Notes under the pieces: generated by a model
Seen by the model: only the letters and a program-made list of their open reading frames with translations
What the model was told of the DNA's origin: nothing
The model's database searches: none
Translations under genes and position numbers: made by a program
Source: SAR86 cluster bacterium
GTDB taxonomy: Bacteria > Pseudomonadota > Gammaproteobacteria > Magnimaribacterales > TMED112
DNA length: 64,000 nucleotides
NCBI GenBank assembly: GCA_016779525.1
Contig: JADHNL010000001.1
Span: forward strand, 13,109-77,108
Direction: 5' to 3'
Part shown: piece by piece, positions 21,632 to 50,923 of the stretch
Layout of the letters: the number at the start of each line of letters is the position of its first letter
Numbering within the stretch: the first letter of the stretch is position 1

Positions 21632-21640
21632 AATTAACAC

Positions 21641-23760: not shown

Positions 23761-23882
23761 ATATTCATATAATTAATTAAATTTTTTATGGCTTTAAATG
23801 CCCGATAGCTCACTGTAAATGCCAAAAATTTTTGATAAGTGTTAAATTAATACCATATTCAACTTAAATCAAAAAAATTAGA

Positions 23883-24456: not shown

Positions 24457-25146
24457 ATGCAAGAAAACACAATAGATTGGATAAAGCATCACTTTAAACA
24501 GGTAGAAGCCATTTTTTTCGACTTTGATAATACTTTGGTTGATGAAAATTATTCAGTCAAAAATAGGTGGGATGTAATACTTGCCAAATATCAGAACATA
24601 ACTAATAACAACAAGCTAAGAGAAACCTTTTTTAAAATTTATAAAGATAAGGGCCAAGATTATAAGTATCATGTTGACGATGCACTCGATTGTTTAAATA
24701 TTAGCAAGAAATATAAAAAGAGTATTATTGATGAATTTCTTTGCCAGACATCTACTGATGAATCTGTTTATCCCTATGCAGAAGAAGTGTTAGAAGTGCT
24801 TTCAAACATGCATTTAAAATTAGCAATGTTTACAAATGGTTTAAAAAAAAATCAGGAACATAGGATTAAAATTTCTGGTATCTCAGACTTTTTTAAATAC
24901 ATTCAGTATGGTGACACATATAAGCTTAAGCCAGACCTAAATAGCTTCATGATGGTTTCTAAGGAGCTTAACTTATCTAACAAAAGAAAGTTTATAATGA
25001 TAGGCGACAGCTATAATGACGATTTTTTAGGGGCAAAAAGATGTGGTGCTGAATGTATTTTGATAAATTCAGAAATAAAAAATAATTTTTCAAGTCCTGT
25101 ATATTCTTCTTTAAAAGAGCTTTATGAGGATTTAAAACAAATATGA
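24457..25146 (+). CDS. HAD-superfamily hydrolase (subfamily IA-like)
   Basis: 229-aa ORF with motif I FFDFDNTLVD, a capped middle region, and motif IV MIGDSYNDDFLGA. Confidence 0.7.
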   Translation: MQENTIDWIKHHFKQVEAIFFDFDNTLVDENYSVKNRWDVILAKYQNITNNNKLRETFFKIYKDKGQDYKYHVDDALDCLNISKKYKKSIIDEFLCQTSTDESVYPYAEEVLEVLSNMHLKLAMFTNGLKKNQEHRIKISGISDFFKYIQYGDTYKLKPDLNSFMMVSKELNLSNKRKFIMIGDSYNDDFLGAKRCGAECILINSEIKNNFSSPVYSSLKELYEDLKQI

Positions 25147-26381
25147 GCAAATGTAAAAAAGATATGAAAGATGGAATATTAATAATCGGAGGAGGTCTTT
25201 TACAAATACCTGCCTTAATAAAAGCACATGAGCTAGGGCTTACAACACATTTAACTGATATTAATAGCAAATGTGCTGCAAGAGATTATTGTGATTATTT
25301 CTATGAAGTGGATATAAATGATTACGAGAAAACAGCAGATCTTGCTGTTAATCTGGTAACTCAAAATAAAATATCAGGAGTATATACACAAGGAACAGAT
25401 GCAGAATACACTGTTGCATATGCTGCTGAGAAAGCAAAGCTTTTTACAATTGGAGCTACCACTGCAAGAAAATCAAAGAATAAAGCCCTCATGAGAGACG
25501 CATTATCTGAGGCTGGTGTAGAAAATGTTAAATATAAAAAAATTAGTTGTTTTGATGAGTGTTTAAATGCTGCTGAGGAAGTTGGTTACCCTCTTTATAT
25601 GAAACCAACTGATAACTCTGCATCAAGAGGAATATCAAGGGTAAGCAATGCCAAAGAATTAAAAGATGCTTATGATTTTGCTGAAAAAAACCTTTTAAAT
25701 GAATCTGATATTTTATTAGAAGCTGAAATCATAGGAACTGAGCATAGTGTTGATTGTGTCATGTTTAATGGAATTCTTTATCCAGCAGGAATATCAGATC
25801 GTGTATTTCTTGAAAAAAATATATTTGCTGTTCAAACAGAGTCTATTACCCCCTCACTTTTGCCCTCAAAAATTCAAAAAGAAATGTATGAAAAGATGGA
25901 AATGGCAGCTGATGCAATTGGCATAAGATTTGGAGCTTTTAAAGGTGATCTTGTGGTTGATAGCAATAATAACGTTAGAATTATTGAAATCACTGCTAGA
26001 ACTTCTGGTGGTTTTGACTCTCAATATAGAAAACCTTTGTCGTTTGGTATAGATATATTAAAAGCAACAATTGACATTTCTATGGGAAAAAAACTTGATG
26101 TTCTTGATTTAATACCTAAGCATTTCTATAGATCTAAGACATATAGTCTTATGCCTCAACCAGGCAAGATAACTTCAATTGAGGGTCTTGAAGAGGCAAG
26201 AAAAATTGAAGGAGTTTATAAAATATTCATGACAAAAAATATTGGAGATATAATTCCTGAATATAAAGATTGTTCCATAAGGACAAATTTCATTACTATT
26301 TGTGCAAAAGACTCAGAAACATTAAGAAAAATTCAAGAGCAAGTTCACAAGACATTTAAAATAAAGACCTCTCAAGATTAA
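25143..26381 (+). CDS. ATP-grasp domain ligase (carboxylate-amine ligase type)
   Basis: 412-aa ORF. It has a pre-ATP-grasp Rossmann-like N-terminus (ILIIGGGLLQIPALIKA), then KALMRDALSEAGV...GYPLYMKPTDNSASRGISRV and IIEITARTSGG, as in ATP-grasp enzymes. Confidence 0.7.
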   Translation: MSKCKKDMKDGILIIGGGLLQIPALIKAHELGLTTHLTDINSKCAARDYCDYFYEVDINDYEKTADLAVNLVTQNKISGVYTQGTDAEYTVAYAAEKAKLFTIGATTARKSKNKALMRDALSEAGVENVKYKKISCFDECLNAAEEVGYPLYMKPTDNSASRGISRVSNAKELKDAYDFAEKNLLNESDILLEAEIIGTEHSVDCVMFNGILYPAGISDRVFLEKNIFAVQTESITPSLLPSKIQKEMYEKMEMAADAIGIRFGAFKGDLVVDSNNNVRIIEITARTSGGFDSQYRKPLSFGIDILKATIDISMGKKLDVLDLIPKHFYRSKTYSLMPQPGKITSIEGLEEARKIEGVYKIFMTKNIGDIIPEYKDCSIRTNFITICAKDSETLRKIQEQVHKTFKIKTSQD

Positions 26382-26426
26382 GCATATATTTTGCACATCA
26401 AATAATTTATAATTCTCAGAAATTCA

Positions 26427-27410
26427 ATGAAAAAGCTTAGTACAGGTATTAATGGTTTTGGAAGATTTGGTCTTCATTTATTGAAGTATTGGCTTGAAAG
26501 AAGTGAAGATGCAAATTTTAAGATAGATTTTATTAACGATGATTTCCTTAGTCAAAATAAACTTCTAGACATTATCAAAAATGACAAATATGTAACCTTC
26601 AACAAATATAAAATAAAATTAATAAGTAAAAATTATCTATCGATACTCAAGCCCTCAGGTGAGAGTTTTAAGATTCAAATTACAAATTCAACACCTGATG
26701 ATATCCAATGGCTTGGAAAGCCAGATATTTTCCTTGAATGTTCAGGAAAAAGAACAGTTTCTAAAGAAAATGAACAGTTGATCAAGGGCAATACAAAACT
26801 CATTGTTATATCAGCTACATCTTGGGATATACCAAAAACACTTGTTTATGGCTTCAACCATAATGATTATTCAAAAGACGATAAACAGGTTTCGTATGGC
26901 TCATGTACGGTGAATGCATACGTGCCTCTTGCAAATTATATGTACAAAAAATATAAATATACAAATAGTGATGTTAATGTTGTGCATAATGTAGCAGAGC
27001 ATAAATTAGAAGACACCCTTATACGAAAATTTTGCACGTTAGAAAAATCAGCTCAACAATTCTTCAATCACCTAAATGATAATAACTTTATTGTGAATTA
27101 CACAGTTGTTCCATACACAGGTGTTTCAATGATTGATTTTAGATTTCATATTCCAGATGGAATAAATATTGATGACTTTTTAGAAGAGTTCTCAAATGAA
27201 ATTACAGTTGGTTCATTAAAAGGCTTGTATGGTATGAATGAAACTGACATAGGACCTGAAGTACATAATTGCACAACATTTAGCACAGTATTTATTAAAG
27301 AGAATATTAAGGTTGTTGGTGATTCTCTTTATATGCATGGTTATTTTGACACAGAAAATTCCGTAAACAGGTACTATGATCTCGTTAACTTCATAGCAGA
27401 GAAAAATTAG
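26427..27410 (+). CDS. Glyceraldehyde-3-phosphate dehydrogenase-family paralogue (divergent)
   Basis: 327-aa ORF. GINGFGRFGLHLLKYW compares with GAPDH GINGFGRIGR; FINDDF with INDL; and the catalytic-Cys region YGSCTVNAYVPLA with SCTTNCLAPLA. It is otherwise highly diverged. Confidence 0.55.
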   Translation: MKKLSTGINGFGRFGLHLLKYWLERSEDANFKIDFINDDFLSQNKLLDIIKNDKYVTFNKYKIKLISKNYLSILKPSGESFKIQITNSTPDDIQWLGKPDIFLECSGKRTVSKENEQLIKGNTKLIVISATSWDIPKTLVYGFNHNDYSKDDKQVSYGSCTVNAYVPLANYMYKKYKYTNSDVNVVHNVAEHKLEDTLIRKFCTLEKSAQQFFNHLNDNNFIVNYTVVPYTGVSMIDFRFHIPDGINIDDFLEEFSNEITVGSLKGLYGMNETDIGPEVHNCTTFSTVFIKENIKVVGDSLYMHGYFDTENSVNRYYDLVNFIAEKN

Positions 27411-27429: not shown

Positions 27430-28479
27430 ATGAAAATTAATAACAAAGTTATTTCTAATGATAATCCTTATCTAATTGCTGAAATGTCTGGTAATCATAA
27501 AAAAGATTTTGCTAGGGCAATTGAGATTATTGATAAGGCCAAAGCTAACGGTGCCGATGCAGTAAAGTTTCAAACATACAAACCTGAAACCATAACAATG
27601 AATATGAAATCAGAAGCTTTCAAAGTTAAAGATAAGTTATGGTCTGGACGATATTTATGGGACGTATACGATGAAGGTTCAATGCCATGGGAAATGCAGG
27701 AGGAGCTTTTTAAATATTGTAAAGAAATATCATTCACTGCCTTCTCTTCGCCCTTTGATTTAACAGCAATAGAATTTCTTGAAAGAGTAGATGTCCCCGC
27801 ATATAAAATTGCGTCATTTGAAATACTAGATTTAGAGTTAATCTCTGAGTGCTGTAAAACAGGTAAACCAGTAATAATATCTACAGGCATGGCAAGTTAT
27901 GATGAAATTGATGATGCCATCAATGTTGCAACAAAATACACAGATAAAAGCAACTTATGCTTGTTACACTGCATATCAGGTTATCCTTCAAAACCTGAAG
28001 ACTATAATTTGAAGAAAATACCTGAATTAAGCAACAGATATGGTGTAAAGGTTGGGTTAAGCGATCACACAGAAGATAACTTAGTTCCACTTCTATCAGT
28101 GCCACTTGGCGCATGTGTTATTGAAAAACATATTACTCTATCAAAGGATGATGGGGCATTGGATAGCAAATTTTCCATGGATCCTAATCAGCTTAAAGAA
28201 CTGTCTGCCAAATTAAATATAGCTAGCAAAACTCTTGAAGGAGAAAAAAGAATTTCTGAGGGAGAGATAAATAATAGACTTTTTAGGAGGTCATTATATT
28301 TTGCAAAAGATCTTAAAAAAGGAGAAGTTATTGATAGGGATGCTATCAAGAGCATAAGGCCTGGCGATGGTTTAAAACCAAAGTATCTGTTAGATGTTAT
28401 TGGGAAGAAAGTATCTCAAGATGTATTTTATGGCACTCCTATTTTGAAAGAAAAAGTTATTGGTTTTCAGGAAAAATGA
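27430..28479 (+). CDS. pseI: Pseudaminic acid synthase (NeuB-family nonulosonate synthase)
   Basis: 349-aa ORF. NPYLIAEMSGNHKKDFARAIEIIDKAKANGADAVKFQTY and YKIASFE match the NeuB family, and a C-terminal SAF domain (IKSIRPGDGLKP) is present. The Pse assignment is by context with pseB/pseC/pseF. Confidence 0.75.
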   Translation: MKINNKVISNDNPYLIAEMSGNHKKDFARAIEIIDKAKANGADAVKFQTYKPETITMNMKSEAFKVKDKLWSGRYLWDVYDEGSMPWEMQEELFKYCKEISFTAFSSPFDLTAIEFLERVDVPAYKIASFEILDLELISECCKTGKPVIISTGMASYDEIDDAINVATKYTDKSNLCLLHCISGYPSKPEDYNLKKIPELSNRYGVKVGLSDHTEDNLVPLLSVPLGACVIEKHITLSKDDGALDSKFSMDPNQLKELSAKLNIASKTLEGEKRISEGEINNRLFRRSLYFAKDLKKGEVIDRDAIKSIRPGDGLKPKYLLDVIGKKVSQDVFYGTPILKEKVIGFQEK

Positions 28480-29525
28480 AAAAAATTATTTTTGCACCCA
28501 CATTTACAGAGGGCCATCAGAGTTCGTTTATGTTTAAATACATAAAAAACATATATGATGACAATACAATTATATACACTCCAAAAAATGACTATCTAGC
28601 TGATTTCAATTCAGTTGTGCAGGAAGATCTTTATTATTTTTTTCAAAATAGTGACCCCAGGCTTTATGAAGGTTTTCTAAATTATTGTGAAAGTATGCCT
28701 AATTCTAAATGCCTAATTCCAAACTTATCCCATCCGGAATTCTTATTATCAGAACTTAATATAAGAAAAGATTTGGATCTTAGACTTAGCACCTTTTCAG
28801 GCCAGTTATTTCATAGATCTAAAGCAAGACGAAAAGTGTTATCAGAACTTTTAAAAAAATTTTCGATAAAAAAAATAATAATACAATCTATTTTAGGTAA
28901 GAACTTTAGGCTACATGAATCAATTAATGATTATGATTTTTCGATCAATAAACATGTATATTTAGATGAACCATTTTATGATGAAGAGTATCTATTTGAA
29001 AAAAATATTGAACAAGAGAATGATAAAGCACTTTACTTCGGGACAATGTTCTATGGGAAAGGAGTTGACATTCTAATAGAGGCAGCAAATTTTATACAAA
29101 GCAATACTAAGTTAACTATAGCAGGTAACTTAAAAACTCAGAATTTTGATATGCCTTCTGTACCAGAAAACATTACCCTTAAAGATAAATACTTTGAAGA
29201 TGAAGAAATGATAGATGAATTCTTAAGTAGTAAATTTATCGTCTTGCCTTATAGAGATACATACAAACATGGAACTAGTGGTGTTTTAGTACAAGCTTGT
29301 AGATCTGGAAAGCCAGTTATTGTTCCAGATATTGCTCCCTTTTCAGATGTTATAAAAAGACATAAAATTGGCATTACTTTTAAGGCAAATGATCCAATAA
29401 GCCTTGCGAAAGCTATTGATAAAATGTCTGCTATGGATATAGGTAAAGAGTTTAAGTATAAGGTTAAAAGCTATATTGCTGAAATGACTACATGGGATGA
29501 TTTAAATAGAGAGGTTTGGAGCTAA
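28476..29525 (+). CDS. GT-B fold glycosyltransferase (GT1/GT4-like); possible PseG-role or Pse-transferase
   Basis: 349-aa ORF. Its C-terminal half (GKGVDILIEAA...LPYRDTYKHGTSGVLVQACRSGKPVIVPDIAPFSDVI) resembles the GT4 EX7E region with substitutions. It lies between pseI and pseB. Confidence 0.45.
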   Translation: MKKIIFAPTFTEGHQSSFMFKYIKNIYDDNTIIYTPKNDYLADFNSVVQEDLYYFFQNSDPRLYEGFLNYCESMPNSKCLIPNLSHPEFLLSELNIRKDLDLRLSTFSGQLFHRSKARRKVLSELLKKFSIKKIIIQSILGKNFRLHESINDYDFSINKHVYLDEPFYDEEYLFEKNIEQENDKALYFGTMFYGKGVDILIEAANFIQSNTKLTIAGNLKTQNFDMPSVPENITLKDKYFEDEEMIDEFLSSKFIVLPYRDTYKHGTSGVLVQACRSGKPVIVPDIAPFSDVIKRHKIGITFKANDPISLAKAIDKMSAMDIGKEFKYKVKSYIAEMTTWDDLNREVWS

Positions 29526-30508
29526 TGTTTAATGGAAAATCTATTTTAATTACTGGAGGTACAGGCTCTTTTGGGAAAGCTTTTTGTAACTTCTTGAGAA
29601 AAAACTATAAGCCACTACGTGTAGTAATTTTTTCTAGAGATGAAATGAAGCAGTGGGAGATGGCAAAGGATTATGATGAAAAGTTCTTTAGATTTTTCCT
29701 TGGAGATGTTAGGGACAAAGATAGACTAAGATTTGCATTGAAAGACGTAGATTTTGTAGTTCATGCTGCTGCGATGAAAATTGTTCCTACGGCAGAATAT
29801 GACCCTATGGAATGCGTAAAGACAAATGTTATGGGTGCAATGAATGTTATTGAAGAATGTCTTCTAGCTGATTCAGTTACAAATGTTGTTGCATTATCAA
29901 CGGATAAGGCTTCATCTCCAATTAACCTTTATGGAGCAACAAAACTTACTTCCGATAAACTTTTTGCAGCAGCAAATAACTTTAAAGGAAAAAAAGATAT
30001 CAAATTTTCGGTCGTTAGATACGGGAATGTAATGTGTTCACGTGGATCAGTAATACCTTTTTTTCAGTCTCTATCTGCAGAAGATGATATACCTATAACT
30101 GACTTAAATATGACTAGATTTATGATTTCTTTAGAGGAAGGTGTTGATCTTGTAAAAATAGCCTTTGAAGACTCTTTGGGAGGCGAAATTTACGTGAGAA
30201 AGATTCCTTCAATGAAGGTGATGGATATTGCTGAAGCTGTCACAGGAAGAAAAGACTTCAAGGAAATAGGAATTAGGCTTGGTGAAAAGATTCATGAGCA
30301 AATGATAAGTGCTGAAGAATCCTATACAACCTATGAATATCAAAACTATTATAAGATTCTTCCTCAATTTAATGATTGGGGCACAGATAAAAATAGAATC
30401 AAAGATGGATCAAAAGTCAAAGAGGGCTTTATTTACTCTAGTGAAACAAATAAAGACTGGATGAGCAATGAGGCTCTCAAGGAATTTCTTGCGAAGAATA
30501 AGCAATGA
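29516..30508 (+). CDS. pseB: UDP-N-acetylglucosamine 4,6-dehydratase (inverting), PseB/FlaA1-type
   Basis: 330-aa ORF. GKSILITGGTGSFGKAF, VIFSRDEMKQWEM, FFLGDVRDKDRL, HAAAMKIVPTAEYDPMECVKTNVMGAMNV and VRYGNVMCSRGSVIP closely parallel H. pylori FlaA1 as I recall it. Confidence 0.88.
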   Translation: MELMFNGKSILITGGTGSFGKAFCNFLRKNYKPLRVVIFSRDEMKQWEMAKDYDEKFFRFFLGDVRDKDRLRFALKDVDFVVHAAAMKIVPTAEYDPMECVKTNVMGAMNVIEECLLADSVTNVVALSTDKASSPINLYGATKLTSDKLFAAANNFKGKKDIKFSVVRYGNVMCSRGSVIPFFQSLSAEDDIPITDLNMTRFMISLEEGVDLVKIAFEDSLGGEIYVRKIPSMKVMDIAEAVTGRKDFKEIGIRLGEKIHEQMISAEESYTTYEYQNYYKILPQFNDWGTDKNRIKDGSKVKEGFIYSSETNKDWMSNEALKEFLAKNKQ

Positions 30509-31635
30509 TTCCCTATGGCAAGCAAGATATAGATCAAGACGACATCACAGAGGTCGTAAATGTTTTAAAATCTGATTTCTTAACTCAAGGCCCAAAAATT
30601 TTAGAATTTGAAGACAGCATATCAAGATATGTTGGTAGCAGATTCACTGTTGCTGTCAATTCTGCCACTTCCGCATTACATCTTGGATGTCTAGCGCTTG
30701 GTGTAGAAAAAAAAGATTTAGTGTGGACATCATCAAATTCATTTGTAGCGTCATCAAATGCCGCATTGTATTGCGGTGCAGAGATTGATTTTGTTGACAT
30801 AGATTCGAGAAATAACAATATGTGCACAGAAGCACTTGAAAAGAAATTGGTAACTGCTAAAAAGAAAGGAATGATTCCTAAAGTTGTAATTCCTGTTCAT
30901 CTTGGGGGGTTGTCATGCGATATGAAAAAAATTTTTGATCTGTCAAAAGATTTTGGTTTCAAAATCATTGAAGATGCAAGTCACTGTATTGGTGGCGATT
31001 TTGATGATGAAAAAATAGGTTCTTGCAAATATTCAGACTTATGTGTTTTTAGCTTTCATCCAGTAAAAATAATAACTACAGGAGAAGGAGGCGCAATCAC
31101 TACAAACTCACAAACTTTAGCAAAAAAAATTACTGCTCTTCGTAGCCATGGAATAACTAGAAATAAAGAAGAATTTAAAAAATGTTTTGTTCCAGATTGG
31201 TATTATCAACAACATTTTCTGGGCTTTAATTACAGAATTACTGATTTGCAAGCAGCCCTTGGGATCTCACAACTAAAACGAATAGACAGCTTTATTAAGA
31301 AAAGAAGAAAAATTGCAAAATATTTTACAGAAAATTTAAATGCTGACTTTAAAACTATCACTACAGAAGAAATAAAGATCTCTTCAAACCACTTATTTAT
31401 TATAAAAAATAACCGCAGAGACGAACTAAGAGAATATTTACTTAAACATGAAATATTTACCACATTGCATTATTTTCCGATACATCTGCAACCTTTTTAT
31501 GCCTCAATGGGGTTCAAATTAGGTGATTTTCCAAATACTGAAAAATATGGAGATGAAGCTCTTTCAATTCCTATCCATACAAACCTTAACGAACATGATG
31601 TGAACTATATTGTTGAAGTAGTAAACAAATTCTGA
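30505..31635 (+). CDS. pseC: UDP-4-amino-4,6-dideoxy-N-acetyl-beta-L-altrosamine transaminase (DegT/PseC family)
   Basis: 376-aa ORF. The N-terminus IPYGKQDIDQDDITEVVNVLKSDFLTQGPK is typical of PseC. SFHPVKIITTGEGG contains the PLP lysine. Confidence 0.85.
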   Translation: MIPYGKQDIDQDDITEVVNVLKSDFLTQGPKILEFEDSISRYVGSRFTVAVNSATSALHLGCLALGVEKKDLVWTSSNSFVASSNAALYCGAEIDFVDIDSRNNNMCTEALEKKLVTAKKKGMIPKVVIPVHLGGLSCDMKKIFDLSKDFGFKIIEDASHCIGGDFDDEKIGSCKYSDLCVFSFHPVKIITTGEGGAITTNSQTLAKKITALRSHGITRNKEEFKKCFVPDWYYQQHFLGFNYRITDLQAALGISQLKRIDSFIKKRRKIAKYFTENLNADFKTITTEEIKISSNHLFIIKNNRRDELREYLLKHEIFTTLHYFPIHLQPFYASMGFKLGDFPNTEKYGDEALSIPIHTNLNEHDVNYIVEVVNKF

Positions 31636-31637
31636 AT

Positions 31638-32312
31638 ATGAAAATCTTGACAATTATTCCAGCAAGAGGCGGTAGTAAAAGAATTGAGAAGAAAAATATA
31701 AAACCCTTTCTTGGAATGCCCATGATGGCTTGGCCAATAAAATCATTAAAAGACTCTAATATTGAAATGGATATTGTAGTGTCATCAGATGATAAAGAGA
31801 TCTTGCAAATTGCAGAAGAGCTTGGGGTAGAAGCAGTTAAAAGGGATGAAAAATTATCCGATGACTATACAACTTCAATGGAAGTAGTTAATGATTATGT
31901 AGAATCCATTGGAAATATCTATGATCTGATAATTAAGATATATCCGACAACGCCGTATTTAGATATTTCAGCATTAAAAAAAGGGATAGAGTTAATTACT
32001 GCAGAAAAAAATGCCTTCTCTCTTGCTAGTATTAAAGAATTTCCTCACCCTATCTCAAGGAAACTTATAAATGAAAATAAATTTGCAAGATTTAAAGACA
32101 AAAAATATGCAAAGCAAAGGACTCAAGATTGTGAAAAGTATTACTATGATGCAGCAAATTTTTATATTTTTAAAAAAAGATTCTTTGAAGAGAGTATGGA
32201 TATTTTTGATGGCTCCACTATTGGAGTTGAGGTTGATAAGATGTTATGTGTTGACATAGACAATACCGAAGATTGGAAATTGGCCGAAAGGCTTATAAAG
32301 TTTAGTGTATAA
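31638..32312 (+). CDS. pseF: Pseudaminic acid cytidylyltransferase (CMP-NeuAc synthetase family)
   Basis: 224-aa ORF with ILTIIPARGGSKRIEKKNIKPFLG and VVSSDD, lying directly after pseB-pseC. Confidence 0.78.
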   Translation: MKILTIIPARGGSKRIEKKNIKPFLGMPMMAWPIKSLKDSNIEMDIVVSSDDKEILQIAEELGVEAVKRDEKLSDDYTTSMEVVNDYVESIGNIYDLIIKIYPTTPYLDISALKKGIELITAEKNAFSLASIKEFPHPISRKLINENKFARFKDKKYAKQRTQDCEKYYYDAANFYIFKKRFFEESMDIFDGSTIGVEVDKMLCVDIDNTEDWKLAERLIKFSV

Positions 32313-32565: not shown

Positions 32566-34236
32566 TTAAAGGTTTATTAAATAATTAATCCACTCTCTAC
32601 GCCACTTTTTTGAAGTTAAAGCATATTTTTCATTGAAGTTTTTTCTTAAATTCTGAATTTTTTGGCTCTGCCACCATTCACTTATATTCCTATTGTTTAA
32701 AAAATTGATAAGTTCAATATGGTTGTCGTGCCATATTGAATGAGATTTAAGCTCTTCAAAAGTTTCTTCTGCATCTTTTTCCATGGGGTAAAGCTCTTTA
32801 TCCCAAAACAAAAATGTAGGCACATTTGCACTCATTGCTATATTTAATGTTGTACCTGGGTGATCTAAAATCAGACATTTACAACCTAAAAGTCTATCAT
32901 GAAAGTTTCCTTTTAATATTTTTAGATTATTGATATTTGATTGAAAAAATTCTAAAGCTGCTATTGCTCCATCTTTTTTTGGATGGGGCCTGTAAAAGAA
33001 TTCAATATCATAACTTTGCATCTCTTCCATAAGATTAAGCTGTTTATAAAGCAATCTATGCCATTCAAGTTGAGTTGGGCTTGGCGATAAGTACCTATTT
33101 ACATTATTCATTCTTGTAGTAGCAAGTAATACAGACTCACTATTTTGCTTATATTTATCCTTAAACTTTGTTAAGTATGGTGATGGGAGCCTATCAAAAA
33201 CTGCTTTATAGTTAGAGTGGTTTTGCCAGCCCCAAGTTATAAACCTAAATTGAGAAAATTCATTCTCATAAACCTCCTCACAGTGTCTTGCAAAACCATA
33301 ACTGCCACCACCATGTTGAAAGCCTACTAACTTATCCCCTCTAGATAATGCATTAGCTATTCTTAATCTGTATTTATCATCGACCCTCATTATGTGTGAA
33401 CCTAGTAAAAATTTTGATCTTTTAGCTTTTTTAAAAGTTGTTTTAGGTAATTTCTTTAAACTCTTAATGCTTTTAGGCATTGTCAGATAAAATAATTTTT
33501 CTATTGGTATGAAGTTCAAACCATGAATATCTAATTTCTTTTCGCTTAAAATTCTATCTTGCCTCTTTGATTCTGTTTTAAATGAATTAAAAAATAAAAT
33601 TGCTGAAGCTACCAGTTGCTCAAGAAGGCTAAAACCATATACCCTTTGTGCCCTCAAAAAACTCCTGCTAAGATCAATAAAAAATTCTTTAAAGGACTTT
33701 AGTTTTTTTGCTTTTTTATTAAAAAAAAACTTTTTTTTAGTTTCTCTAATTATAAATTCATTTGAGGTATTTCTAATAACTAGTGAAGTAAGCCATTCAT
33801 TAAAATCTACTGAATTTAAAGAGTCATGAATATCAACTGTTTCTAGAAAACCGATTTGATCTTCATTACAAATAATTTTTACAAAAACCTGCTTTGAATA
33901 GCTATGTTGAAATTTCTTTAGTTGCATATACTTTTCTAGATAGCTCTGAATAACTAGAATTAACCATGGGTACATAATTGTCTTGTAGAATATGTAATTT
34001 TGATTCAAATCAAATTCGTTATTAAACTTGTCAACATTTGTTTTAATAAAGTTTTTAACAAATAATGATGATCTTTTATCAAGCTCTTCAAAATCAATTT
34101 CTCTTCTTTCTATAAAAGAAAATATCTCATATTTGTTAAAATTTTTATCTCCGGCTGGTAAGGAGTATGTATTGAAAAGTACATGCTTTTTTGGATTAAA
34201 ATTTTTCGGCAAGGAGCCTATTATTAACTGCTTCAT
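32566..34236 (-). CDS. Large uncharacterised transferase-like protein (candidate nonulosonic/ulosonic-acid transferase)
   Basis: 556-aa ORF with no family I recognise confidently. The C-terminal half has GT-B-like features: GFQHGGGSYGF, FFYRPHPKKDG (an HP motif like bacterial sialyltransferases) and LILDHPGTTLNIAMSANVPTFLFW. Its stop codon lies 1 nt from the tRNA-Leu 3' end. Confidence 0.3.
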   Translation of the reverse strand: MKQLIIGSLPKNFNPKKHVLFNTYSLPAGDKNFNKYEIFSFIERREIDFEELDKRSSLFVKNFIKTNVDKFNNEFDLNQNYIFYKTIMYPWLILVIQSYLEKYMQLKKFQHSYSKQVFVKIICNEDQIGFLETVDIHDSLNSVDFNEWLTSLVIRNTSNEFIIRETKKKFFFNKKAKKLKSFKEFFIDLSRSFLRAQRVYGFSLLEQLVASAILFFNSFKTESKRQDRILSEKKLDIHGLNFIPIEKLFYLTMPKSIKSLKKLPKTTFKKAKRSKFLLGSHIMRVDDKYRLRIANALSRGDKLVGFQHGGGSYGFARHCEEVYENEFSQFRFITWGWQNHSNYKAVFDRLPSPYLTKFKDKYKQNSESVLLATTRMNNVNRYLSPSPTQLEWHRLLYKQLNLMEEMQSYDIEFFYRPHPKKDGAIAALEFFQSNINNLKILKGNFHDRLLGCKCLILDHPGTTLNIAMSANVPTFLFWDKELYPMEKDAEETFEELKSHSIWHDNHIELINFLNNRNISEWWQSQKIQNLRKNFNEKYALTSKKWRREWINYLINL

Positions 34237-35947: not shown

Positions 35948-36903
35948 TGAACTTTTTAGTTACAGGTAGTGCCGGATTTATAGGATTTCATCTTAGTAAA
36001 AAGCTGCTAGAAGAAAACCATAATATTGTAGGTTTAGACAACCTAAATAATTATTATGATCCTAAATTAAAACACCAAAGAATCAGCTTGCTGTCAGATT
36101 TTAAAAACTTCGACTTTATCGAAAGTGATTTAAGTCTTATTGGCCAAGTTTCTGGGAAAAAAAAATTTGATGCTGTGATTCATTTAGCTGCACAAGCTGG
36201 AGTTAGAATTGCAAGAAAAAAATATGAAGATTATTTTCAATCTAATATTGATGGATTCAATAAAGCAATCAATTTTTGTATAGATAACGATATAAATAAA
36301 TTCATATATGCTTCCAGTAGCTCAGTATATAGCGGAGAGGAAAGCACCCCCTTTTTAGAGGCAAACAAATTATCTGCCCCAACCTCAATATACGCAGCAA
36401 CAAAAATGTGCAATGAAAATATCGCAAATATTTACTCAAATTTATATGGCCTTAGATCCATTGGACTCAGATTTTTCACTGTGTATGGTCCATTTGGACG
36501 ACCAGATATGGCCTATTTTAAGTTTTTAAAAAATATACTCGACGGCAAGACAGTTGATTTAATTAATTACGGTGAGATGTCTAGAGATATGACCTATATT
36601 GATGATATTGTAAATGGAATTTTTAATGCTATTCAGCATATAAATAGCTTGAATAGCTCAGAATCTCAAATCTTTAATCTTGGTAATGATAAGCCTATAA
36701 AAACAATTTATCTCTTAAACTATCTAGAAAAAATTGCTAATAAAAAAGCAAAAATAAATGAAATATTCACAAAAAATGAAGCTAAACACACACATGCCAA
36801 TATCACTAAAGCAAAAAATAGATTGAATTATTTACCACAAGTAGATTTTGAGAAAGGAATAGAAAAATTTTTTCAATGGTATTTGGAATTTTATAAATTA
36901 TGA
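35947..36903 (+). CDS. NAD-dependent nucleotide-sugar epimerase, UDP-glucuronate 4-epimerase-like
   Basis: FLVTGSAGFIGFHLSKKLLEENHNIVGLDNLNNYYDPKLK, HLAAQAGVR, YAATKMCNE (YxxxK) and RFFTVYGPFGRPDMA form a pattern typical of the Cap1J/LpsL-type UDP-GlcA 4-epimerases. A ugd gene is present in the same locus. Confidence 0.65.
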   Translation: MNFLVTGSAGFIGFHLSKKLLEENHNIVGLDNLNNYYDPKLKHQRISLLSDFKNFDFIESDLSLIGQVSGKKKFDAVIHLAAQAGVRIARKKYEDYFQSNIDGFNKAINFCIDNDINKFIYASSSSVYSGEESTPFLEANKLSAPTSIYAATKMCNENIANIYSNLYGLRSIGLRFFTVYGPFGRPDMAYFKFLKNILDGKTVDLINYGEMSRDMTYIDDIVNGIFNAIQHINSLNSSESQIFNLGNDKPIKTIYLLNYLEKIANKKAKINEIFTKNEAKHTHANITKAKNRLNYLPQVDFEKGIEKFFQWYLEFYKL

Positions 36904-37532
36904 ATGGATTTGATTTAAAAAATTATCATATTTTTTTTTGGGACTTTGATGGTGTTATAAAAAGATCTAATCAGATAAAAGTTGATGCGTTTAAACAACT
37001 TTTCAAAGATTCTGATTGTGTAGATAAAATTATAGAACATCATATACAGAACCAAGGTATCTCAAGATATGAAAAAATACCTCTTTACCTAATGATTTCA
37101 GGTAGGGATACGTCTAAACCAAATGTAGCTAAGTATATTCAGGAATTTTCAGATATTGTCGTAGATAAGGTTGTTCATTCAGACTGGATTCCCGGGGTGC
37201 TCCAATTTTTAGAAAAAACATCAGCAAAAGTAAATATCATCGTAACAGGAACACCTCAAAATGAAATTGAAATGATTCTTCAGCAGCTTAAACTTGATAA
37301 ACAATTCGATTATATTTATGGGGCTCCTCACAATAAAACAGACTCTATAAAAAATATAATTAGCAGCAATGATATTTGTATAAAAAAAATGATAATGATT
37401 GGCGATTCTATGGAAGATTTCAATGCCGCAGTTAAGAATCAAATTGATTTTATGTTAATTGAAAATGAATACAATTCCTTTATTGATAGAAAGAAATGTA
37501 TGATTTGTGCGAGCGATTTCCTTGATTTATGA
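36900..37532 (+). CDS. HAD-superfamily hydrolase/phosphatase
   Basis: 210-aa ORF with motif I FFWDFDGVIKRS and motif IV MIGDSMEDFNAA. Confidence 0.65.
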   Translation: MNGFDLKNYHIFFWDFDGVIKRSNQIKVDAFKQLFKDSDCVDKIIEHHIQNQGISRYEKIPLYLMISGRDTSKPNVAKYIQEFSDIVVDKVVHSDWIPGVLQFLEKTSAKVNIIVTGTPQNEIEMILQQLKLDKQFDYIYGAPHNKTDSIKNIISSNDICIKKMIMIGDSMEDFNAAVKNQIDFMLIENEYNSFIDRKKCMICASDFLDL

Positions 37533-38146
37533 ATTTATCTCTTGAGGAAGCATCTTGTTCTTACCAAGAATTATTTAACTTAGTTGCTAGTGGAAGTCCA
37601 AAGAGAGTTTTATTGGCAGGAGGGAAAACACCCATTGAATTCTACCGTAAATATTTATTTAAGTTAAATGCAAACTTTGCTCTTACAGATGAGAGGATAA
37701 CTCCTGAGTTAAAAAGAAAAAATTATGAGTCATTAAGACCAATATTCCCTAGTTTGATAAATGTGAATTTTCCAAGTAAAGAAAAAGAAATCGCTGGAGG
37801 TATAGGTGAAATTAATGAACAGTATGAACGCTTCTTTCCTCCAGATATTTGTATTTTAGGAATGGGAGAAGATGGGCACTATGCATCAATTTTCCCAAAA
37901 ATGAAAATAATTTTTCAGGATGTTAATGACTTATTCATTTTTTCAAAACTCCCAAATGGCGAGTTAAGATTCTCTGTTACTAAAAAATATATCTGTATGT
38001 CAAAAAAAGTTTACTTGTTAATTGGTAAAGATAACGCAATGAAAAGAAAGCTTCTAGGAGAAAGCAGAACCAAGGAGTTCTTTAGTTTACCTATTTCCGA
38101 AATTTTATATGAATTTAGTGAAAAAATTAGCATAATTTATATCTAA
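37529..38146 (+). CDS. 6-phosphogluconolactonase / glucosamine-6-P deaminase (NagB/Pgl/RpiA-like) family protein
   Basis: 205-aa ORF with LLAGGKTPIEFYRKY, ALTDERITP and ILGMGEDGHYASIFP, the signature of Pgl/DevB-type enzymes. Confidence 0.65.
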   Translation: MNLSLEEASCSYQELFNLVASGSPKRVLLAGGKTPIEFYRKYLFKLNANFALTDERITPELKRKNYESLRPIFPSLINVNFPSKEKEIAGGIGEINEQYERFFPPDICILGMGEDGHYASIFPKMKIIFQDVNDLFIFSKLPNGELRFSVTKKYICMSKKVYLLIGKDNAMKRKLLGESRTKEFFSLPISEILYEFSEKISIIYI

Positions 38147-38949
38147 TGACTATTACAGCACTTGTAAAAAATTTTTTTGAAATGTGGAAGTTATTCCTCA
38201 GTCTTTTGGTAGGTGTTAATTTAGTTTGTATATTTTTACTTTTGTCAATTAAAGAAGAATTTAAATCTGAAAGCTATCTAGTTGAAAGCAAGCTGTCTCA
38301 AAATTCAAGTGGAGCAGGCTTAGGCGGCTTAGGAATATTGGCTAATTCACAAGATTCATATGACGCAGCTTTAGCAATTGAATACATGAAATCCAGAGAA
38401 TTCTTGTACTCATTTATAGAAAAATTTTCTCTACATGAGCATTACTTTCCAAGAAAACAGCTAGATGATATCTTGCTTGAGGAAACTTTTTTGCTTTTGA
38501 AAAATAAAGTTTCACTAAGTTCAGTTTCAGACTTTAGCAAAGTATATAAAATTAGTCTTAGATCATATAGTCCAGCATTTTCATCTGAGATGACTGAAAA
38601 TCTAATAGTAGAATTAAATTCACAGCTGGCTAAGAAAGAGTATTTAAAATCCAATGAAACTGCTGACTTTTTATTGCAGGAACTAGAAAAGACTAATGAT
38701 TCTGCATTAAGTAATAGCTTATTTCAATTGCTTAATGAGGAAGTAAGGCGAAAAACTCTGGCTCAAACTAATGAGAAAGAGTTTATATTCAGAGTTGCCG
38801 CTAAGCCATACCCTGAATTAAAAAGAGCATATCCTCCGTCTAGAATGATTGTGCTAATTTTAATCAATATTATTTTTACTATCCTATTTCTATTCAGCAT
38901 AGTTTTTTGGAAAACTACGAACGAAATTTTTAAAAAAGCAGCCCAATAA
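38146..38949 (+). CDS. Polysaccharide co-polymerase (Wzz/KpsE-like chain-length or export protein), short form
   Basis: 267-aa ORF. It has an N-terminal TM (LFLSLLVGVNLVCIFLLLSI), a predicted helical periplasmic region with YLVESKLSQ...GLGGLGILANSQDSYDAALAIEYMKSREFL, and a C-terminal TM after a P-rich turn (YPPSRMIVLILINIIFTILFLF). Confidence 0.45.
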   Translation: MTITALVKNFFEMWKLFLSLLVGVNLVCIFLLLSIKEEFKSESYLVESKLSQNSSGAGLGGLGILANSQDSYDAALAIEYMKSREFLYSFIEKFSLHEHYFPRKQLDDILLEETFLLLKNKVSLSSVSDFSKVYKISLRSYSPAFSSEMTENLIVELNSQLAKKEYLKSNETADFLLQELEKTNDSALSNSLFQLLNEEVRRKTLAQTNEKEFIFRVAAKPYPELKRAYPPSRMIVLILINIIFTILFLFSIVFWKTTNEIFKKAAQ

Positions 38950-38950
38950 G

Positions 38951-39685
38951 ATGAAAAAAAACCGTTTCAATAATGCTAATGTAGGATTTTTCTTAACAAT
39001 ACCAGATGAAATTGTTTGTGAAATATTTTGTAATTTATCCTATGATTTTTGTGTAATTGATTTAGAGCATTCAGTAATTGATCTAAAAAAATGCCAAAAT
39101 TTTATAAGAATTTGCAACTTAAAAGGAATCGAATGCTTGGTGAGACTAAGTTGTGATAGTGATGTTGAAATAAAAAAAGTATTAGACATGGGAGCTGATG
39201 GAATTATTGTTCCAATGGTAAAATCTCTGAGCCAAGCAAATGAAATAGTAAAAAATGTCTTCTATCCCCCAAAAGGGAGAAGGGGTATGGGTTTAGCAAG
39301 AGCTCAGATGTATGGAGAAAACTTTGAAAAAAATCTGAAAAAAAGTAGAAAAATAAAATTAATAGTTCAGTTTGAACATATTGATGTCCTTAATTGTTAT
39401 GAAGATATTTTATCTATCGAGGAAGTAAGTGGCTTCATGATAGGTCCATATGATTTTACTGCTTCAATGGGTTTGGCGGGAGAATTTGAGAATCCAATAT
39501 TCCTGAAACATATTAAAGATATAGAAGAAGCGAATAAAAAATTTAAAAAAATACAAGGTTTCCACTTAATTGAACCTGATAAAGAAAAATTTAGACAACT
39601 GTTGAGCAAAAATTATGATTTCATTGTCTACAGTCTAGACACTAAACATTTGCAAATATCTGGAGCAAGCATTTTCGATGAGTGA
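38951..39685 (+). CDS. HpcH/HpaI-family class II (pyruvate) aldolase
   Basis: 244-aa ORF with VIDLEHSVIDL, GADGIIVPMVKSLSQANEIV and YPPKGRRGMG, which match the HpcH/GarL/YfaU aldolase signature (D.EH ... PMV ... YPP.G.RG). Confidence 0.7.
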   Translation: MKKNRFNNANVGFFLTIPDEIVCEIFCNLSYDFCVIDLEHSVIDLKKCQNFIRICNLKGIECLVRLSCDSDVEIKKVLDMGADGIIVPMVKSLSQANEIVKNVFYPPKGRRGMGLARAQMYGENFEKNLKKSRKIKLIVQFEHIDVLNCYEDILSIEEVSGFMIGPYDFTASMGLAGEFENPIFLKHIKDIEEANKKFKKIQGFHLIEPDKEKFRQLLSKNYDFIVYSLDTKHLQISGASIFDE

Positions 39686-40412
39686 ATCTATTTGTTTGAT
39701 TCCTGCACGCATGAATTCCTCAAGGTTTCCAGGGAAACCACTTGAAAAAATTAATGGTATTGAAATGATTAAAATTTGTTATCAAAATGCAGAATCTGCA
39801 GATTGTTTCGATCATATTTATATCGCTACACCTGATAAAGAAATTATGGAATTCTGCAAACTCAATAGCATGCATTCAATCATGACCTCTGATAAGCATG
39901 AAAGATGTACTAGTAGAACTTTAGAGGCAGTACTGAAGCTTAATAAATTAAATAAAAGAATTTCAAAAATTGTAATGCTTCAAGGCGATGAACCTTTAAT
40001 CAGTTCTAATATGTTAAAACAATCACTGGAATCATTACAATCTTCAAAAATTACAAATCTAGTAACAAGAATTCGTGATACAAAAGAGATAGATGATGTT
40101 AACGAAGTAAAAGTAGTTTTGTCTGCAAATGGTAACGCAATATATTTCTCAAGATCAAGAATCCCCGCAACCAAAGATGATATTGATTATGATATTTATA
40201 AACAGGTTTGTGCTATAGCCTTTGATCTAGAGTCGTTAAAACTGTTTGAAAATTTACCAGAGAGCACACTAGAAAGAATAGAATCAATTGATATGAATAG
40301 ATTGATTGAGAATGAAATACAGATAAAAGCTGTAATTGTTAATGGTCAAATTGCTAGTGTAGATACACCAAGTGACTTAATGAAAGTAGAAAATTTAATT
40401 TCTAATGGATAA
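39678..40412 (+). CDS. KdsB-family cytidylyltransferase (CMP-ulosonic acid synthetase-like)
   Basis: 244-aa ORF with ICLIPARMNSSRFPGKPLEKINGIEMI, LQGDEPLI, AIYFSRSRIP, IESIDMNRLIEN and VDTPSDLMKV, which parallel E. coli KdsB motifs. Confidence 0.7.
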   Translation: MSESICLIPARMNSSRFPGKPLEKINGIEMIKICYQNAESADCFDHIYIATPDKEIMEFCKLNSMHSIMTSDKHERCTSRTLEAVLKLNKLNKRISKIVMLQGDEPLISSNMLKQSLESLQSSKITNLVTRIRDTKEIDDVNEVKVVLSANGNAIYFSRSRIPATKDDIDYDIYKQVCAIAFDLESLKLFENLPESTLERIESIDMNRLIENEIQIKAVIVNGQIASVDTPSDLMKVENLISNG

Positions 40413-41343
40413 TTGTTTTCTAGTTACAGGCTGCGGCGGTTTTATTGCTTCAAAACTGATTAAAGAACTAAAGAATGATGATCCAAATCAACGAATCATA
40501 GGCATTGATAACTTCACTACAGGTTATCAAGATAATATTCCTGATGATATATTTTTCTACAAAGGTGATTGTGCCGACAGGGATTTACTAAACATTATTT
40601 TTGGCAAACATAAAATCTCAAAGATCTTTCACTTTGCTGCACAAAGTTCAGGTGAGATAAGTTTTGATAACCCAGAATACGATTTAAAGACTAATACTTT
40701 GTCAACATTATATCTGCTTGATAAATCTGTTGAATATGAAGTTGATCAGTTTATATTTGCTAGCACTATGTCTGTTTATGGTGACGCTAATGAAAAAGCA
40801 AGTGAAGTCCATAAGTGTAATCCAAAATCTTTCTATGGTGTTGGTAAGTTGGCTAGTGAAAACTATCTATCGATCTATAAGAGGCAGTTCAATCTTAACT
40901 GTATTTCTTTAAGATTATTTAATGTATATGGCCCAGGACAAAACCTTAAGAATCTTAGACAAGGAATGGTAAGTATTTATTTAGCACAATTGATGAAATC
41001 TAAAGATATTGAAGTGCATGGATCTTTAAAACGATTTAGAGATTTAATTTATATCGATGATGTGACAAGAATTATTCTAAATTTAACTAAATGGAGGAGC
41101 TTTGATTTTGATGTATTAAATATTGGAACTGGTTTAAAAACAAGCGTGGAAAACATAATTCTTGGGATATGTAATGCCTTAGAAGTTAGCTATAAAGATA
41201 TAAAAATAACACATCCCAAAGAAACACTTGGCGATATCAATGGCATATATGCCAATAATGAAAGATTACTAGAATCAATACCAATGGATTTTATCAAATT
41301 TGATCAAGGTATATTAAAGATGGTGGATAGTGTAAATGATTAA
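40405..41343 (+). CDS. NAD-dependent epimerase/dehydratase (extended SDR)
   Basis: 312-aa ORF with FLVTGCGGFIASKLIKEL, HFAAQSS, YGVGKLASE (YxxxK) and RLFNVYGPGQ. Confidence 0.7.
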   Translation: MDNCFLVTGCGGFIASKLIKELKNDDPNQRIIGIDNFTTGYQDNIPDDIFFYKGDCADRDLLNIIFGKHKISKIFHFAAQSSGEISFDNPEYDLKTNTLSTLYLLDKSVEYEVDQFIFASTMSVYGDANEKASEVHKCNPKSFYGVGKLASENYLSIYKRQFNLNCISLRLFNVYGPGQNLKNLRQGMVSIYLAQLMKSKDIEVHGSLKRFRDLIYIDDVTRIILNLTKWRSFDFDVLNIGTGLKTSVENIILGICNALEVSYKDIKITHPKETLGDINGIYANNERLLESIPMDFIKFDQGILKMVDSVND

Positions 41344-41762
41344 TAATAAAAAAGTTATTACAGTTATACCAGCAAGATTGGGCTCTTACAGGTTCCCAAC
41401 AAAACCAATTGAAAAGATTGCAGGAATACCAATGTTAGAGAGGGTTTTTAATGGAGCTAAAGGTTGTTACAGATAAAGATGGATATGCACTATATTTTTC
41501 TAGAAACCCTATTCCAGCAGAATGGTTTGGCGATAAAGAATTTAAATATAAGTTAGAAATCTGTGTTATGCCTTTTCATGCTTGGGCAATAGAAAAATTT
41601 ATGTAATTAGATGAAGGCATTCTTGAGGATATTGAATCAGTTGACATGTTAAGGCTTTTAGAAAATAACGTGAAAGTAAAGATGGTTAAATCTCCAATTA
41701 ATATGCAGAGCGTTGATGTTCCTGAAGATATTCTTAAAGTTGAATCAATTCTAAAAAAATGA
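41336..41762 (+). pseudogene. Decayed second KdsB-family cytidylyltransferase gene (frameshift, internal deletion, in-frame stop)
   Basis: No ORF of 60 aa or more lies here. Frame 1 from ATG 41336 reads MINNKKVITVIPARLGSYRFPTKPIEKIAGIPMLERVFNGAKGCYR* (stop 41474-41476). A second frame from about 41466 reads VTDKDGYALYFSRNPIPAEWFGDKEFKYKLEICVMPFHAWAIEKFM*, with TAA at 41604-41606. It continues LDEGILEDIESVDMLRLLENNVKVKMVKSPINMQSVDVPEDILKVESILKK* (TGA 41760-41762). Both ends match KdsB motifs, but the central third including the QGDEP region is absent. Confidence 0.8.
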
Positions 41763-50833: not shown

Positions 50834-50923
50834 ATAGATTCAATTTAAGTGCTTGAGATGAGAGCTTTGGAACATAAATATTTCATTCAAATTGCTTTGT
50901 TATGTTATATTTACAAAAATTAT

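Follow-up and report, generated by a model that had tools for sequence, protein, structure and literature searches.

Which protein transfers pseudaminic acid (Pse) to the surface polysaccharide of a SAR86 cluster bacterium? The question is raised by a 64,000-nucleotide stretch of contig JADHNL010000001.1 (assembly GCA_016779525.1; the whole stretch is called the window below). A prediction made from the letters alone had noted two pathways there for sugars activated with cytidine monophosphate (CMP), with no recognised transferase for Pse or another ulosonic acid, and had put forward a 556-aa protein with a glycosyltransferase (GT) fold of the GT-B type as the candidate. Both pathways are present, one represented by PseI, PseB, PseC and PseF and the other by a KdsB-like cytidylyltransferase and an HpaI-type aldolase, and none of the scanned open reading frames (ORFs) of the window was recognised as a transferase of the sialyl, Kdo, TagF or Maf type. 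Sequence comparison places the candidate, here called ISP94_00250, as a divergent member of LIC12162, a large, already named and uncharacterised protein family, and we suggest that it is a plausible CMP-Pse transferase. Coordinates of all features in the window are given in table 1.

The ORF lies on the minus strand as predicted, and the three motifs quoted for it (GFQHGGGSYGF, RPHPKKDG and DHPGTTLNIAMSANVPTF) were all found in its translation, with their coordinates verified. A 100% identical database protein (P0001 in our set) belongs to a SAR86 cluster metagenome-assembled genome at NCBI, where it is labelled "hypothetical protein ISP94_00250". A search of protein databases revealed 22 further homologues with 24–52% identity and E-values down to 7e-191, which rules out a chance ORF. 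No transmembrane helix was predicted (the maximum Kyte-Doolittle value of a 19-residue window was 1.38), which also rules out a membrane protein.

The original prediction had treated this protein as an orphan of no nameable family, which was wrong. It matches the NCBIfam model TIGR04331 ("LIC12162 family transferase") with an E-value of 1.7e-54 and 185.6 bits, aa 69–553 being aligned to positions 70–585 of the 585-position profile. This score is lower than the curated NCBI cutoff of 225, which is probably why the protein is labelled hypothetical. The Pfam family PF27859 ("LIC12162") is assigned to P0001 and to every homologue; our local copy of Pfam (2025) is older than this entry, and a scan of ISP94_00250 against it at E ≤ 1 returned no family. 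The name of the family derives from a gene of Leptospira interrogans. When 1.84 billion clusters at 50% identity were searched with a profile of 21 homologues, 6,989 representatives were obtained at E ≤ 1e-3, of which 2,759 reach E ≤ 1e-30, and a second profile search of a database of 5.8 billion proteins gained only two more proteins. ISP94_00250 has the same length and architecture as the family and all of its motifs (QHG, WGW, LPSP, YRP and DHPGTT...N.P). Its clade differs from the remaining members in having His for Tyr at position 418 and Ala for Asp/Glu at position 427.

A literature search under TIGR04331, LIC12162, PF27859, TIGR04326 and LIC13510 revealed one incidental mention only. 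At least one genome paper has thus already touched on a link between the family and nonulosonic acids (NulO): that of Herbaspirillum points out a transferase of the Lic12162 family encoded immediately downstream of neuABC, for which transfer of N-acetylneuraminic acid (Neu5Ac) to lipopolysaccharide is suggested as a possible role (PMC6679464). One member from the search for representatives (P0124, 820 aa) has an inositol-monophosphatase-family domain (PF00459, E 4e-36) N-terminal to the LIC12162 domain (aa 250–815), a fusion which hints that a phosphatase step may be coupled to transfer.

To describe the fold, ISP94_00250 was modelled with AlphaFold2 from an alignment of 150 sequences (pLDDT 93.2, pTM 0.93). 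Foldseek comparison of the whole model with the Protein Data Bank (PDB) gave GT-B enzymes exclusively, with probabilities up to 1.00. The matches were SdgB, TarM, UDP-GlcNAc 2-epimerases, OtsA, UrdGT2, WaaA, TagF and MurG, and thus include a transferase using CMP-Kdo (WaaA) and an enzyme using cytidine diphosphate (CDP)-glycerol (TagF). The C-terminal domain was also modelled separately to take out the effect of domain orientation, and its matches were again donor domains of GT-B enzymes (WbaZ-1, UGT2B, glycogen synthase, the TagF-like Cps3D and WaaA), the highest TM-score being that to TagF (TMq 0.54, E 3.6e-3). The predicted GT-B-like fold was therefore confirmed, as only GT-B enzymes were matched by the whole protein and by its C-terminal domain alone.

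Conservation of motifs was assessed in 150 members of the family, which had been collected with a hidden Markov model and independently of any motif. Loci from the scans of contigs and metagenomes described below relied on the exact peptide DHPGTTLN, so that conservation of DHPGTT is circular there, and they were excluded from these counts. The columns of the family motifs are kept at 76–100% with the exception of position 418. The strongest motif is one which had not been singled out before: Q307 (149/150, 99%), H308 (147/150, 98%) and G309 (150/150, 100%) form an invariant Q-H-G after a strand of the N-terminal domain (aa 302–306). The loops directly before the interdomain linker are also highly conserved (W335 in 148, G336 in 150, W337 in 139 and P353 in 142 of the 150 sequences), as are E326 (94%) and R531 (91%).

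The original prediction drew on an HP motif, by analogy with the short one that binds the CMP phosphate in bacterial sialyltransferases of several GT-B families. Strand order in the model suggests that the loop Y415–P419, which holds the HP of RPHPKKDG, occupies the topological place of the HP motif of sialyltransferases, TagF and KpsC. Within this loop Y415 (135/150, 90%), R/K416 (97%) and P417 (133/150, 89%) are well kept, and the consensus is YRPY: position 418 is Tyr in 113 members and His in 11 (7%), any HP being present in the loop in 7/150. H418 is specific to the small clade of ISP94_00250. On the other hand, a conserved HP does exist in DHPGTT (D 142/150, 95%; H 114/150, 76%; P 135/150, 90%; G 124/150, 83%; T462 141/150, 94%; T463 130/150, 87%), the pair being retained in 106 of the 150 members. 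Judging again from strand order, this motif seems to sit where GT80 enzymes and TagF have the Ser-Ser pair that binds phosphate, and not at the HP position of sialyltransferases. In the GT80 enzyme PmST1, the HP histidine is His311 and the phosphate-binding serines are Ser355 and Ser356 (review, PMC4202792); the spacing from H418 to T462 is 44 aa, identical to that from His311 to Ser355.

To investigate the genomic context of the family, we analyzed 34 distinct loci encoding homologues, which were annotated by precomputed Pfam matches or by phmmer with proteins of the window. Scans with the DHPGTTLN peptide contributed five loci from genome contigs (21-sequence alignment) and 24 from metagenomes; loci L004–L032 were found via this peptide, and the bias is on the motif, not on the neighbours. 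A synthase of the NeuB family (NeuB/PseI) was detected in 16 of the 34 loci, and four further loci without it contain either strong PseB/PseC matches or a PseG-like gene together with DegT and CTP_transf_3, so that NulO genes are present in 20 loci overall. Another three have a KdsB-like CTP_transf_3 module alone. The remaining 11 lack such genes, of which six have less than 3 kb of flanking sequence and the other five an essentially one-sided flank. When about 10 kb was available on both sides (ten loci), NulO genes were found in eight and the KdsB-like module in five. Thus, the co-occurrence that had been put forward as a check was observed, genes for NeuB/PseI, PseB/PseC or CTP_transf_3 being present in the majority of the homologous loci.

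The LIC12162 gene is often directly behind the synthase or the CMP-synthetase and on the same strand. Its order is NeuB-CTP_transf_3-LIC12162 in L036 and L017, and in L014 it comes immediately after a pseC-F-GNAT-x-I cluster. L013 has PseB, PseC, PseF, a PseG-PseH fusion, PseI and LIC12162, followed by a module of 2-hydroxyacid dehydrogenase, SDR, HAD, HpaI and KdsB-like genes, which is overall the same layout as in the window. The neighbouring synthase could be typed as PseI in five loci and as Neu- or legionaminic acid (Leg)-type in another five, so that the family is associated with NulO as a class, Pse- and Neu/Leg-type alike. In a neighbor-joining tree, ISP94_00250 clusters with the proteins of L001, L009, L014 and L010, and the typed neighbours there (L001 and L014) are PseI, so that its own clade is PseI-linked. 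A separate observation concerns L034, where CTP_transf_3 is fused to Aminotran_3 in a 677-aa protein (L034:6862-8895).

The second pathway of the window also recurs beside this family. The module, which is conserved and recurs beside NulO loci of marine metagenomes, was found in L013, L035, L036 and the locus of homologue P0017, and a variant of it occurs in L001, L009, L010, L016 and L030. Its class-II pyruvate aldolase is of the HpcH/HpaI type, or HMGL-like in the variant, and is accompanied by a KdsB-like CTP_transf_3 protein, a HAD phosphatase and SDRs. A 2-hydroxyacid dehydrogenase and a GlcN-isomerase/pgl-like ORF are frequent additions. In terms of gene content, it looks like a route to a CMP-activated 3-deoxy-2-ulosonic acid without KdsA or NeuB. 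In complete loci the module ends in a protein of TIGR04326 (L001:15919-17649, E 2e-96; L016:17384-19216, E 3e-120), which is likewise uncharacterised and named "LIC13510 family surface carbohydrate biosynthesis protein" in NCBIfam.

Comparison of TIGR04331 with TIGR04326 by hhalign gave a probability of 83% and an E-value of 1e-5 over about 185 columns (the last ~200 residues). Q-H-G, YRP(H/Y) and DHPGTT of the former are paired with Q-H-S, an invariant K-P-H-P and S-S-T-S of the latter, which shows that the two families are remote homologues; they co-occur in the same loci. However, TIGR04326 proteins have a different N-terminal region, and their genes close the aldolase/KdsB-like module and do not adjoin the NulO genes. 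The simplest reading is that there are two paralogous transferases, one for each CMP-activated acid, LIC12162 proteins acting on NulO and TIGR04326 proteins on the aldolase-derived acid. This is supported by five loci with full flanks (L004, L006, L017, L033 and L034) which have NulO genes and a LIC12162 gene and lack the second module.

The function that we infer for ISP94_00250, and consider rather probable, is that of a LIC12162-family GT-B glycosyltransferase, either soluble or peripheral, which transfers Pse to the surface polysaccharide from CMP-Pse made by the adjacent pseBCFI genes. In such a reaction, the C-terminal Rossmann-like domain might bind the CMP moiety of the donor via the Y415-R416-P417-(H/Y)418 loop and the DHPGTT loop. 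The D458–T463 loop, together with the N-terminus and dipole of the following helix, would surround the phosphate, with Thr-Thr in the role of the Ser-Ser of GT80 enzymes. The Q307-H308-G309 loop would be on the cleft face of the N-terminal domain, and H308 may be the catalytic histidine, acting on the acceptor hydroxyl or on the leaving group in a way that can be likened to the D/E-D/E-G motif of sialyltransferases or to the catalytic His of TagF. The acceptor would be a lipid-linked repeat unit that is being assembled for a Wzx/Wzy-dependent polysaccharide, and the Pse-bearing unit could then be flipped by the 503-aa membrane protein, polymerised by the Wzy-like protein and exported by the Wza-like protein (table 1). 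Across the family, the donor probably varies with the locus, each enzyme using the CMP-NulO of Pse, Leg or Neu type that is made by the genes next to it. The proposal of a Pse or ulosonate transferase thus agrees cleanly with fold and co-occurrence and, as to motifs, only in a modified form, and it stays at the level of the plausible.

Several observations weigh against this assignment. The matches of the whole model are weak and distant (best E 3.4e-4, TM-score about 0.3), the top ones are GT4 enzymes which use nucleoside diphosphate (NDP)-sugars, and GT38, GT52, GT80, GT99 and GT107 enzymes, including KpsC and WbbB, are absent from the top 50 of both fold searches. The family profile matched nothing at E ≤ 10 among all PDB sequences, and no weak GT family recurred when 80 members were scanned against Pfam at E ≤ 1. 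The HP histidine of sialyltransferases is missing from 93% of the LIC12162 family. No conserved pair of Q(i) and D(i+4) columns corresponding to QxxxD was present in the 150 members, some QxxxD occurring in the region in 19 of them, and the residue roles proposed above rest on the order of secondary structures and on motif spacing. As to gene context, the synteny counts, such as the 20 of 34 loci with NulO genes, stand without a matched background control, and in the window ISP94_00250 is on the strand opposite to both pathways, so that operon membership cannot assign its donor. In L016 and the P0017 locus, both with full flanks, the second module adjoins the LIC12162 gene and the surrounding 10 kb hold no NulO gene, an arrangement that speaks against a strict rule of one family per acid. 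Finally, the literature searched contains no biochemical or genetic evidence on any member of the family.

Given the fold matches, ISP94_00250 might be an ordinary GT-B enzyme with an NDP-sugar donor, linked to NulO via its acceptor or product, in that it would build the acceptor residue for the NulO or attach the sugar that follows the NulO. SdgB, TarM, OtsA, glycogen synthase, UGT and WbaZ-1, the best matches, are all NDP-sugar enzymes, which together with the unconserved HP histidine would suit such an activity, and synteny does not separate donor from acceptor specificity. We nevertheless regard it as unlikely, because it leaves the loci without an enzyme for their CMP-NulO, none being recognisable in the window, and because the association with Pse- and Neu/Leg-type synthases alike is easier to reconcile with a common chemistry of CMP donors than with a common acceptor. 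Moreover, an EX7E-type or other GT4/GT1 signature was absent in the 80 members at E ≤ 1, and the remote homologue TIGR04326 has an invariant K-P-H-P, which is typical of CMP/CDP-dependent GT-B enzymes. It is similarly doubtful that the protein transfers the CMP-activated acid of the second pathway, Pse being handled by another protein such as the second orphan discussed below or the GT4-like ORF in the pse operon. Such a donor would explain L016 and the P0017 locus, in the latter of which the stop codon of the gene abuts the aldolase gene, and the module is downstream of the gene in L001, L009, L010, L013, L028, L030, L035 and L036. It accords poorly with the five full-flank loci that have NulO genes and no second module. 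In addition, when both are present the gene abuts the NulO genes (L013, L014 and L036), a TIGR04326 protein closes the second module in L001 and L016, and the clade of ISP94_00250 is PseI-linked.

A GT-B-fold protein need not be a glycosyltransferase, and we also considered a PseG/NeuC-like nucleotide-sugar hydrolase or 2-epimerase of the NulO pathway and a TagF-like phosphotransferase that would add a phospho-alcohol from a CDP donor, which appear quite improbable here. UDP-GlcNAc 2-epimerases (MnaA, GNE and 7vza) and TagF/Cps3D are indeed among the fold matches, no PseG was recognisable in the window, and P0124 carries the phosphatase-family domain described above. However, two loci have a PseG-type gene of their own adjoining the family member, namely the PseG-PseH fusion of L013 (515 aa, 7335-8879; TIGR03590, 318 bits) and a Glyco_tran_28_C (PseG-like) gene in L034, indicating that the LIC12162 family is unlikely to stand in for PseG. 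The NCBIfam models of PseG (TIGR03590) and of epimerases did not match ISP94_00250, Glyphos_transf and Epimerase_2 were unmatched in the 80 members at E ≤ 1, and genes for CDP-glycerol or CDP-ribitol synthesis were not recognised in the locus.

How does a CMP-Pse transferase of this kind compare with known enzymes? PmST1 (GT80), NST (GT52) and the polysialyltransferases (GT38) share the GT-B fold with ISP94_00250, for which a CMP-nonulosonate donor is likewise expected. With PmST1, it also shares the 44-aa spacing between the loop at the HP position and Thr-Thr, and its x-H-G loop recalls D/E-D/E-G by analogy. It differs from all three families in the lack of PDB sequence matches (E ≤ 10) and of top-50 Foldseek matches, and in the HP histidine, which is present in 7% of its family. 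WbbB (GT99), KpsC/KpsS (GT107), KpsS1 (GT118) and KrkA (GT140) are retaining GT-B-type enzymes for Kdo or Pse which use CMP-ulosonic acids; they are defined by QxxxD, a nucleophile and carboxylate-binding motif, and have an HP that binds CMP in the C-terminal domain (PMC12887879). Unlike these, the LIC12162 family does not conserve QxxxD and showed no sequence or top-50 fold match to them. Apart from KpsS1, the literature found names no polysaccharide Pse transferase that is defined biochemically.

Tannerella forsythia Tanf_01245 and TFUB4_00887 are TagB-like GT-B transferases of Pse or Leg derivatives, which are encoded beside the biosynthesis locus (PMC5420450), and they provide a precedent for transfer of Pse/Leg by a GT-B protein that is not a CAZy sialyltransferase. 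ISP94_00250 resembles the TagB/TagF group in its donor domain, where TagF gave the best TM-score and the TagF-like Cps3D was also matched. It differs in that PF04464 (Glyphos_transf) was unmatched in this protein and in the 80 members at E ≤ 1, in its length (556 vs ~445 aa) and in the long helical insertions of its N-terminal domain. Maf flagellin transferases also take Pse and Leg from CMP-activated forms, and their genes are found close to those for NulO. Unlike them, ISP94_00250 is in another family, has no Pfam match to them and is encoded in a Wzx/Wzy/Wza polysaccharide locus and not in a flagellar one. By every sequence and fold test that we ran, it is not a member of GT38, GT52, GT80, GT99, GT107 or the TagF family, and it represents a separate GT-B lineage outside the known families of CMP-sugar transferases.

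A broader proposal can be made for the whole family, which we put forward tentatively and hold to be possible, if somewhat short of probable. LIC12162 may be an as yet unclassified CMP-NulO transferase family at the level of a CAZy family, in which the HP histidine is replaced by Tyr and the His of Q-H-G and the DHPGTT phosphate loop are used; paired with TIGR04326, it may install NulO and an aldolase-derived ulosonic acid on surface polysaccharides of marine bacteria. Enzymes that attach Pse, Leg and related NulO to polysaccharides are scarce, those named being KpsS1 (GT118), the TagB-like proteins of Tannerella and the Maf flagellin transferases. If the proposal is true, thousands of proteins that are now labelled "hypothetical" or have vague names would gain a function; they are encoded in loci for O-antigen and capsule, in organisms ranging from Leptospira and Herbaspirillum to the abundant marine SAR86. 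It would also provide new biocatalysts for sialic-acid-like glycoconjugates, and reveal a CMP-sugar GT-B enzyme which works without the canonical HP histidine. The gain for ISP94_00250 itself is modest, as the window adds a member of the family and no new kind of system; the hypothesis at the level of the family is testable and of consequence for NulO glycobiology.

The original prediction had pointed to a second orphan with a similar feel, the protein with KFHPLQDE whose gene follows the second module. This one is truly an orphan, its own database entry being the only homologue among 5.8 billion proteins, and no relation to the family of ISP94_00250 was found. The similar feel is faintly borne out through the remote TIGR04326 link: the protein gave an E-value of 0.11 against TIGR04326 and of 0.011 (probability 3.9%) in hhalign against four TIGR04326-like proteins, and its motifs ENH, YGMQS, KFHP and ISTGLST are collinear with those of TIGR04326. 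Our guess is that it is a very divergent TIGR04326-like relative and a transferase candidate for the second module.

With regard to the rest of the window, housekeeping genes extend up to about 21.6 kb and are followed by a surface-polysaccharide locus with low GC content (0.27–0.33 at 24000-56000, compared with 0.35–0.37 in the adjoining housekeeping region at 20000-24000). Low GC is common in horizontally exchanged surface-glycan loci. The pse operon (27430-32312, plus strand), which is predicted to supply CMP-Pse, is convergent with the gene of ISP94_00250, and the gap between pseF and this gene is 253 bp. Neither PseG nor PseH was recognised by NCBIfam in the pse locus of the window. The GNAT gene at 23883 could have the role of PseH. 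The GT4-like ORF between pseI and pseB, whose position would suit PseG, was rejected, as it has no similarity to bona fide PseG. Immediately upstream of pseI, the HAD/ATP-grasp/GAPDH-like trio suggests that Pse is modified, for instance with an N-acyl group other than acetyl.

On the other side, divergent from the gene of ISP94_00250 after a 199-bp gap, the 503-aa membrane protein is a probable Wzx-type flippase, as ORFs at the same position elsewhere carry Polysacc_synt or MOP flippase signatures. The second module comprises, in order, genes for HAD, a pgl/GlcN-isomerase-like ORF, an unassigned ORF, aldolase, cytidylyltransferase, SDR, the Wzy-like protein, 2-hydroxyacid dehydrogenase and SDR. 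Downstream of the second orphan are GT2, GT4 and Ugd genes and then the Wza-like exporter.

Table 1. Features of ISP94_00250 and of the surrounding polysaccharide locus, in window coordinates.
Feature	Coordinates	Strand	Remarks
ISP94_00250, 556 aa	32566-34236	minus	LIC12162-family GT-B protein; ATG-started ORF; TIGR04331 and PF27859
C-terminal Rossmann-like donor domain, aa 358-556	32569-33165	minus	modelled alone, pLDDT 94.2
D458-H459-P460-G461-T462-T463	32848-32865	minus	end of fourth donor-domain strand and N-terminus of helix 462-469
Y415-R416-P417-H418-P419	32980-32994	minus	loop after second donor-domain strand
W335-G336-W337 and L350-P351-S352-P353	33178-33234	minus	conserved N-domain loops directly before interdomain linker
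Q307-H308-G309	33310-33318	minus	loop after N-domain strand aa 302-306; most conserved motif
GNAT	23883-24455	plus	candidate PseH
HAD hydrolase, ATP-grasp ligase, GAPDH-like ORF	24457-27410	plus	immediately upstream of pseI; GAPDH: good match in N-terminal NAD domain only
PseI	27430-28479	plus	NCBIfam equivalog, 418 bits, above cutoff
GT4-like ORF	28476-29525	plus	Glycos_transf_1; between pseI and pseB
PseB	29516-30508	plus	NCBIfam equivalog, 494 bits, above cutoff
PseC	30505-31635	plus	NCBIfam equivalog, 490 bits, above cutoff
PseF	31638-32312	plus	NCBIfam, 197 bits, just below cutoff 205.7
Multi-pass membrane protein, 503 aa	34436-35947	plus	divergent from ISP94_00250; hydrophobic translation, no family match
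Second CMP-acid module	36900-44838	plus	gene order given in text
HpaI-type aldolase	38951-39685	plus	second module
KdsB-like cytidylyltransferase	39678-40412	plus	second module
Wzy-like ORF	41759-43084	plus	second module
Second orphan, 495 aa	44835-46322	plus	KFHPLQDE; at end of second module
Ugd-like gene	48367-49536		polysaccharide locus
Large ORF, 469 aa	49424-50833	plus	no Pfam family
Wza-like exporter	50849-53329		polysaccharide locus
Large ORF, 514 aa	60069-61613	plus	no Pfam family

A scan for promoters and terminators around the gene of ISP94_00250 revealed nothing exceeding the expectation from shuffled sequence, and tblastn of ISP94_00250 and of P0017 against 72,556 plasmids gave no match. 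The 469-aa ORF overlaps the end of the Ugd-like gene by about 110 nt, so that its translation probably starts downstream of the listed TTG.

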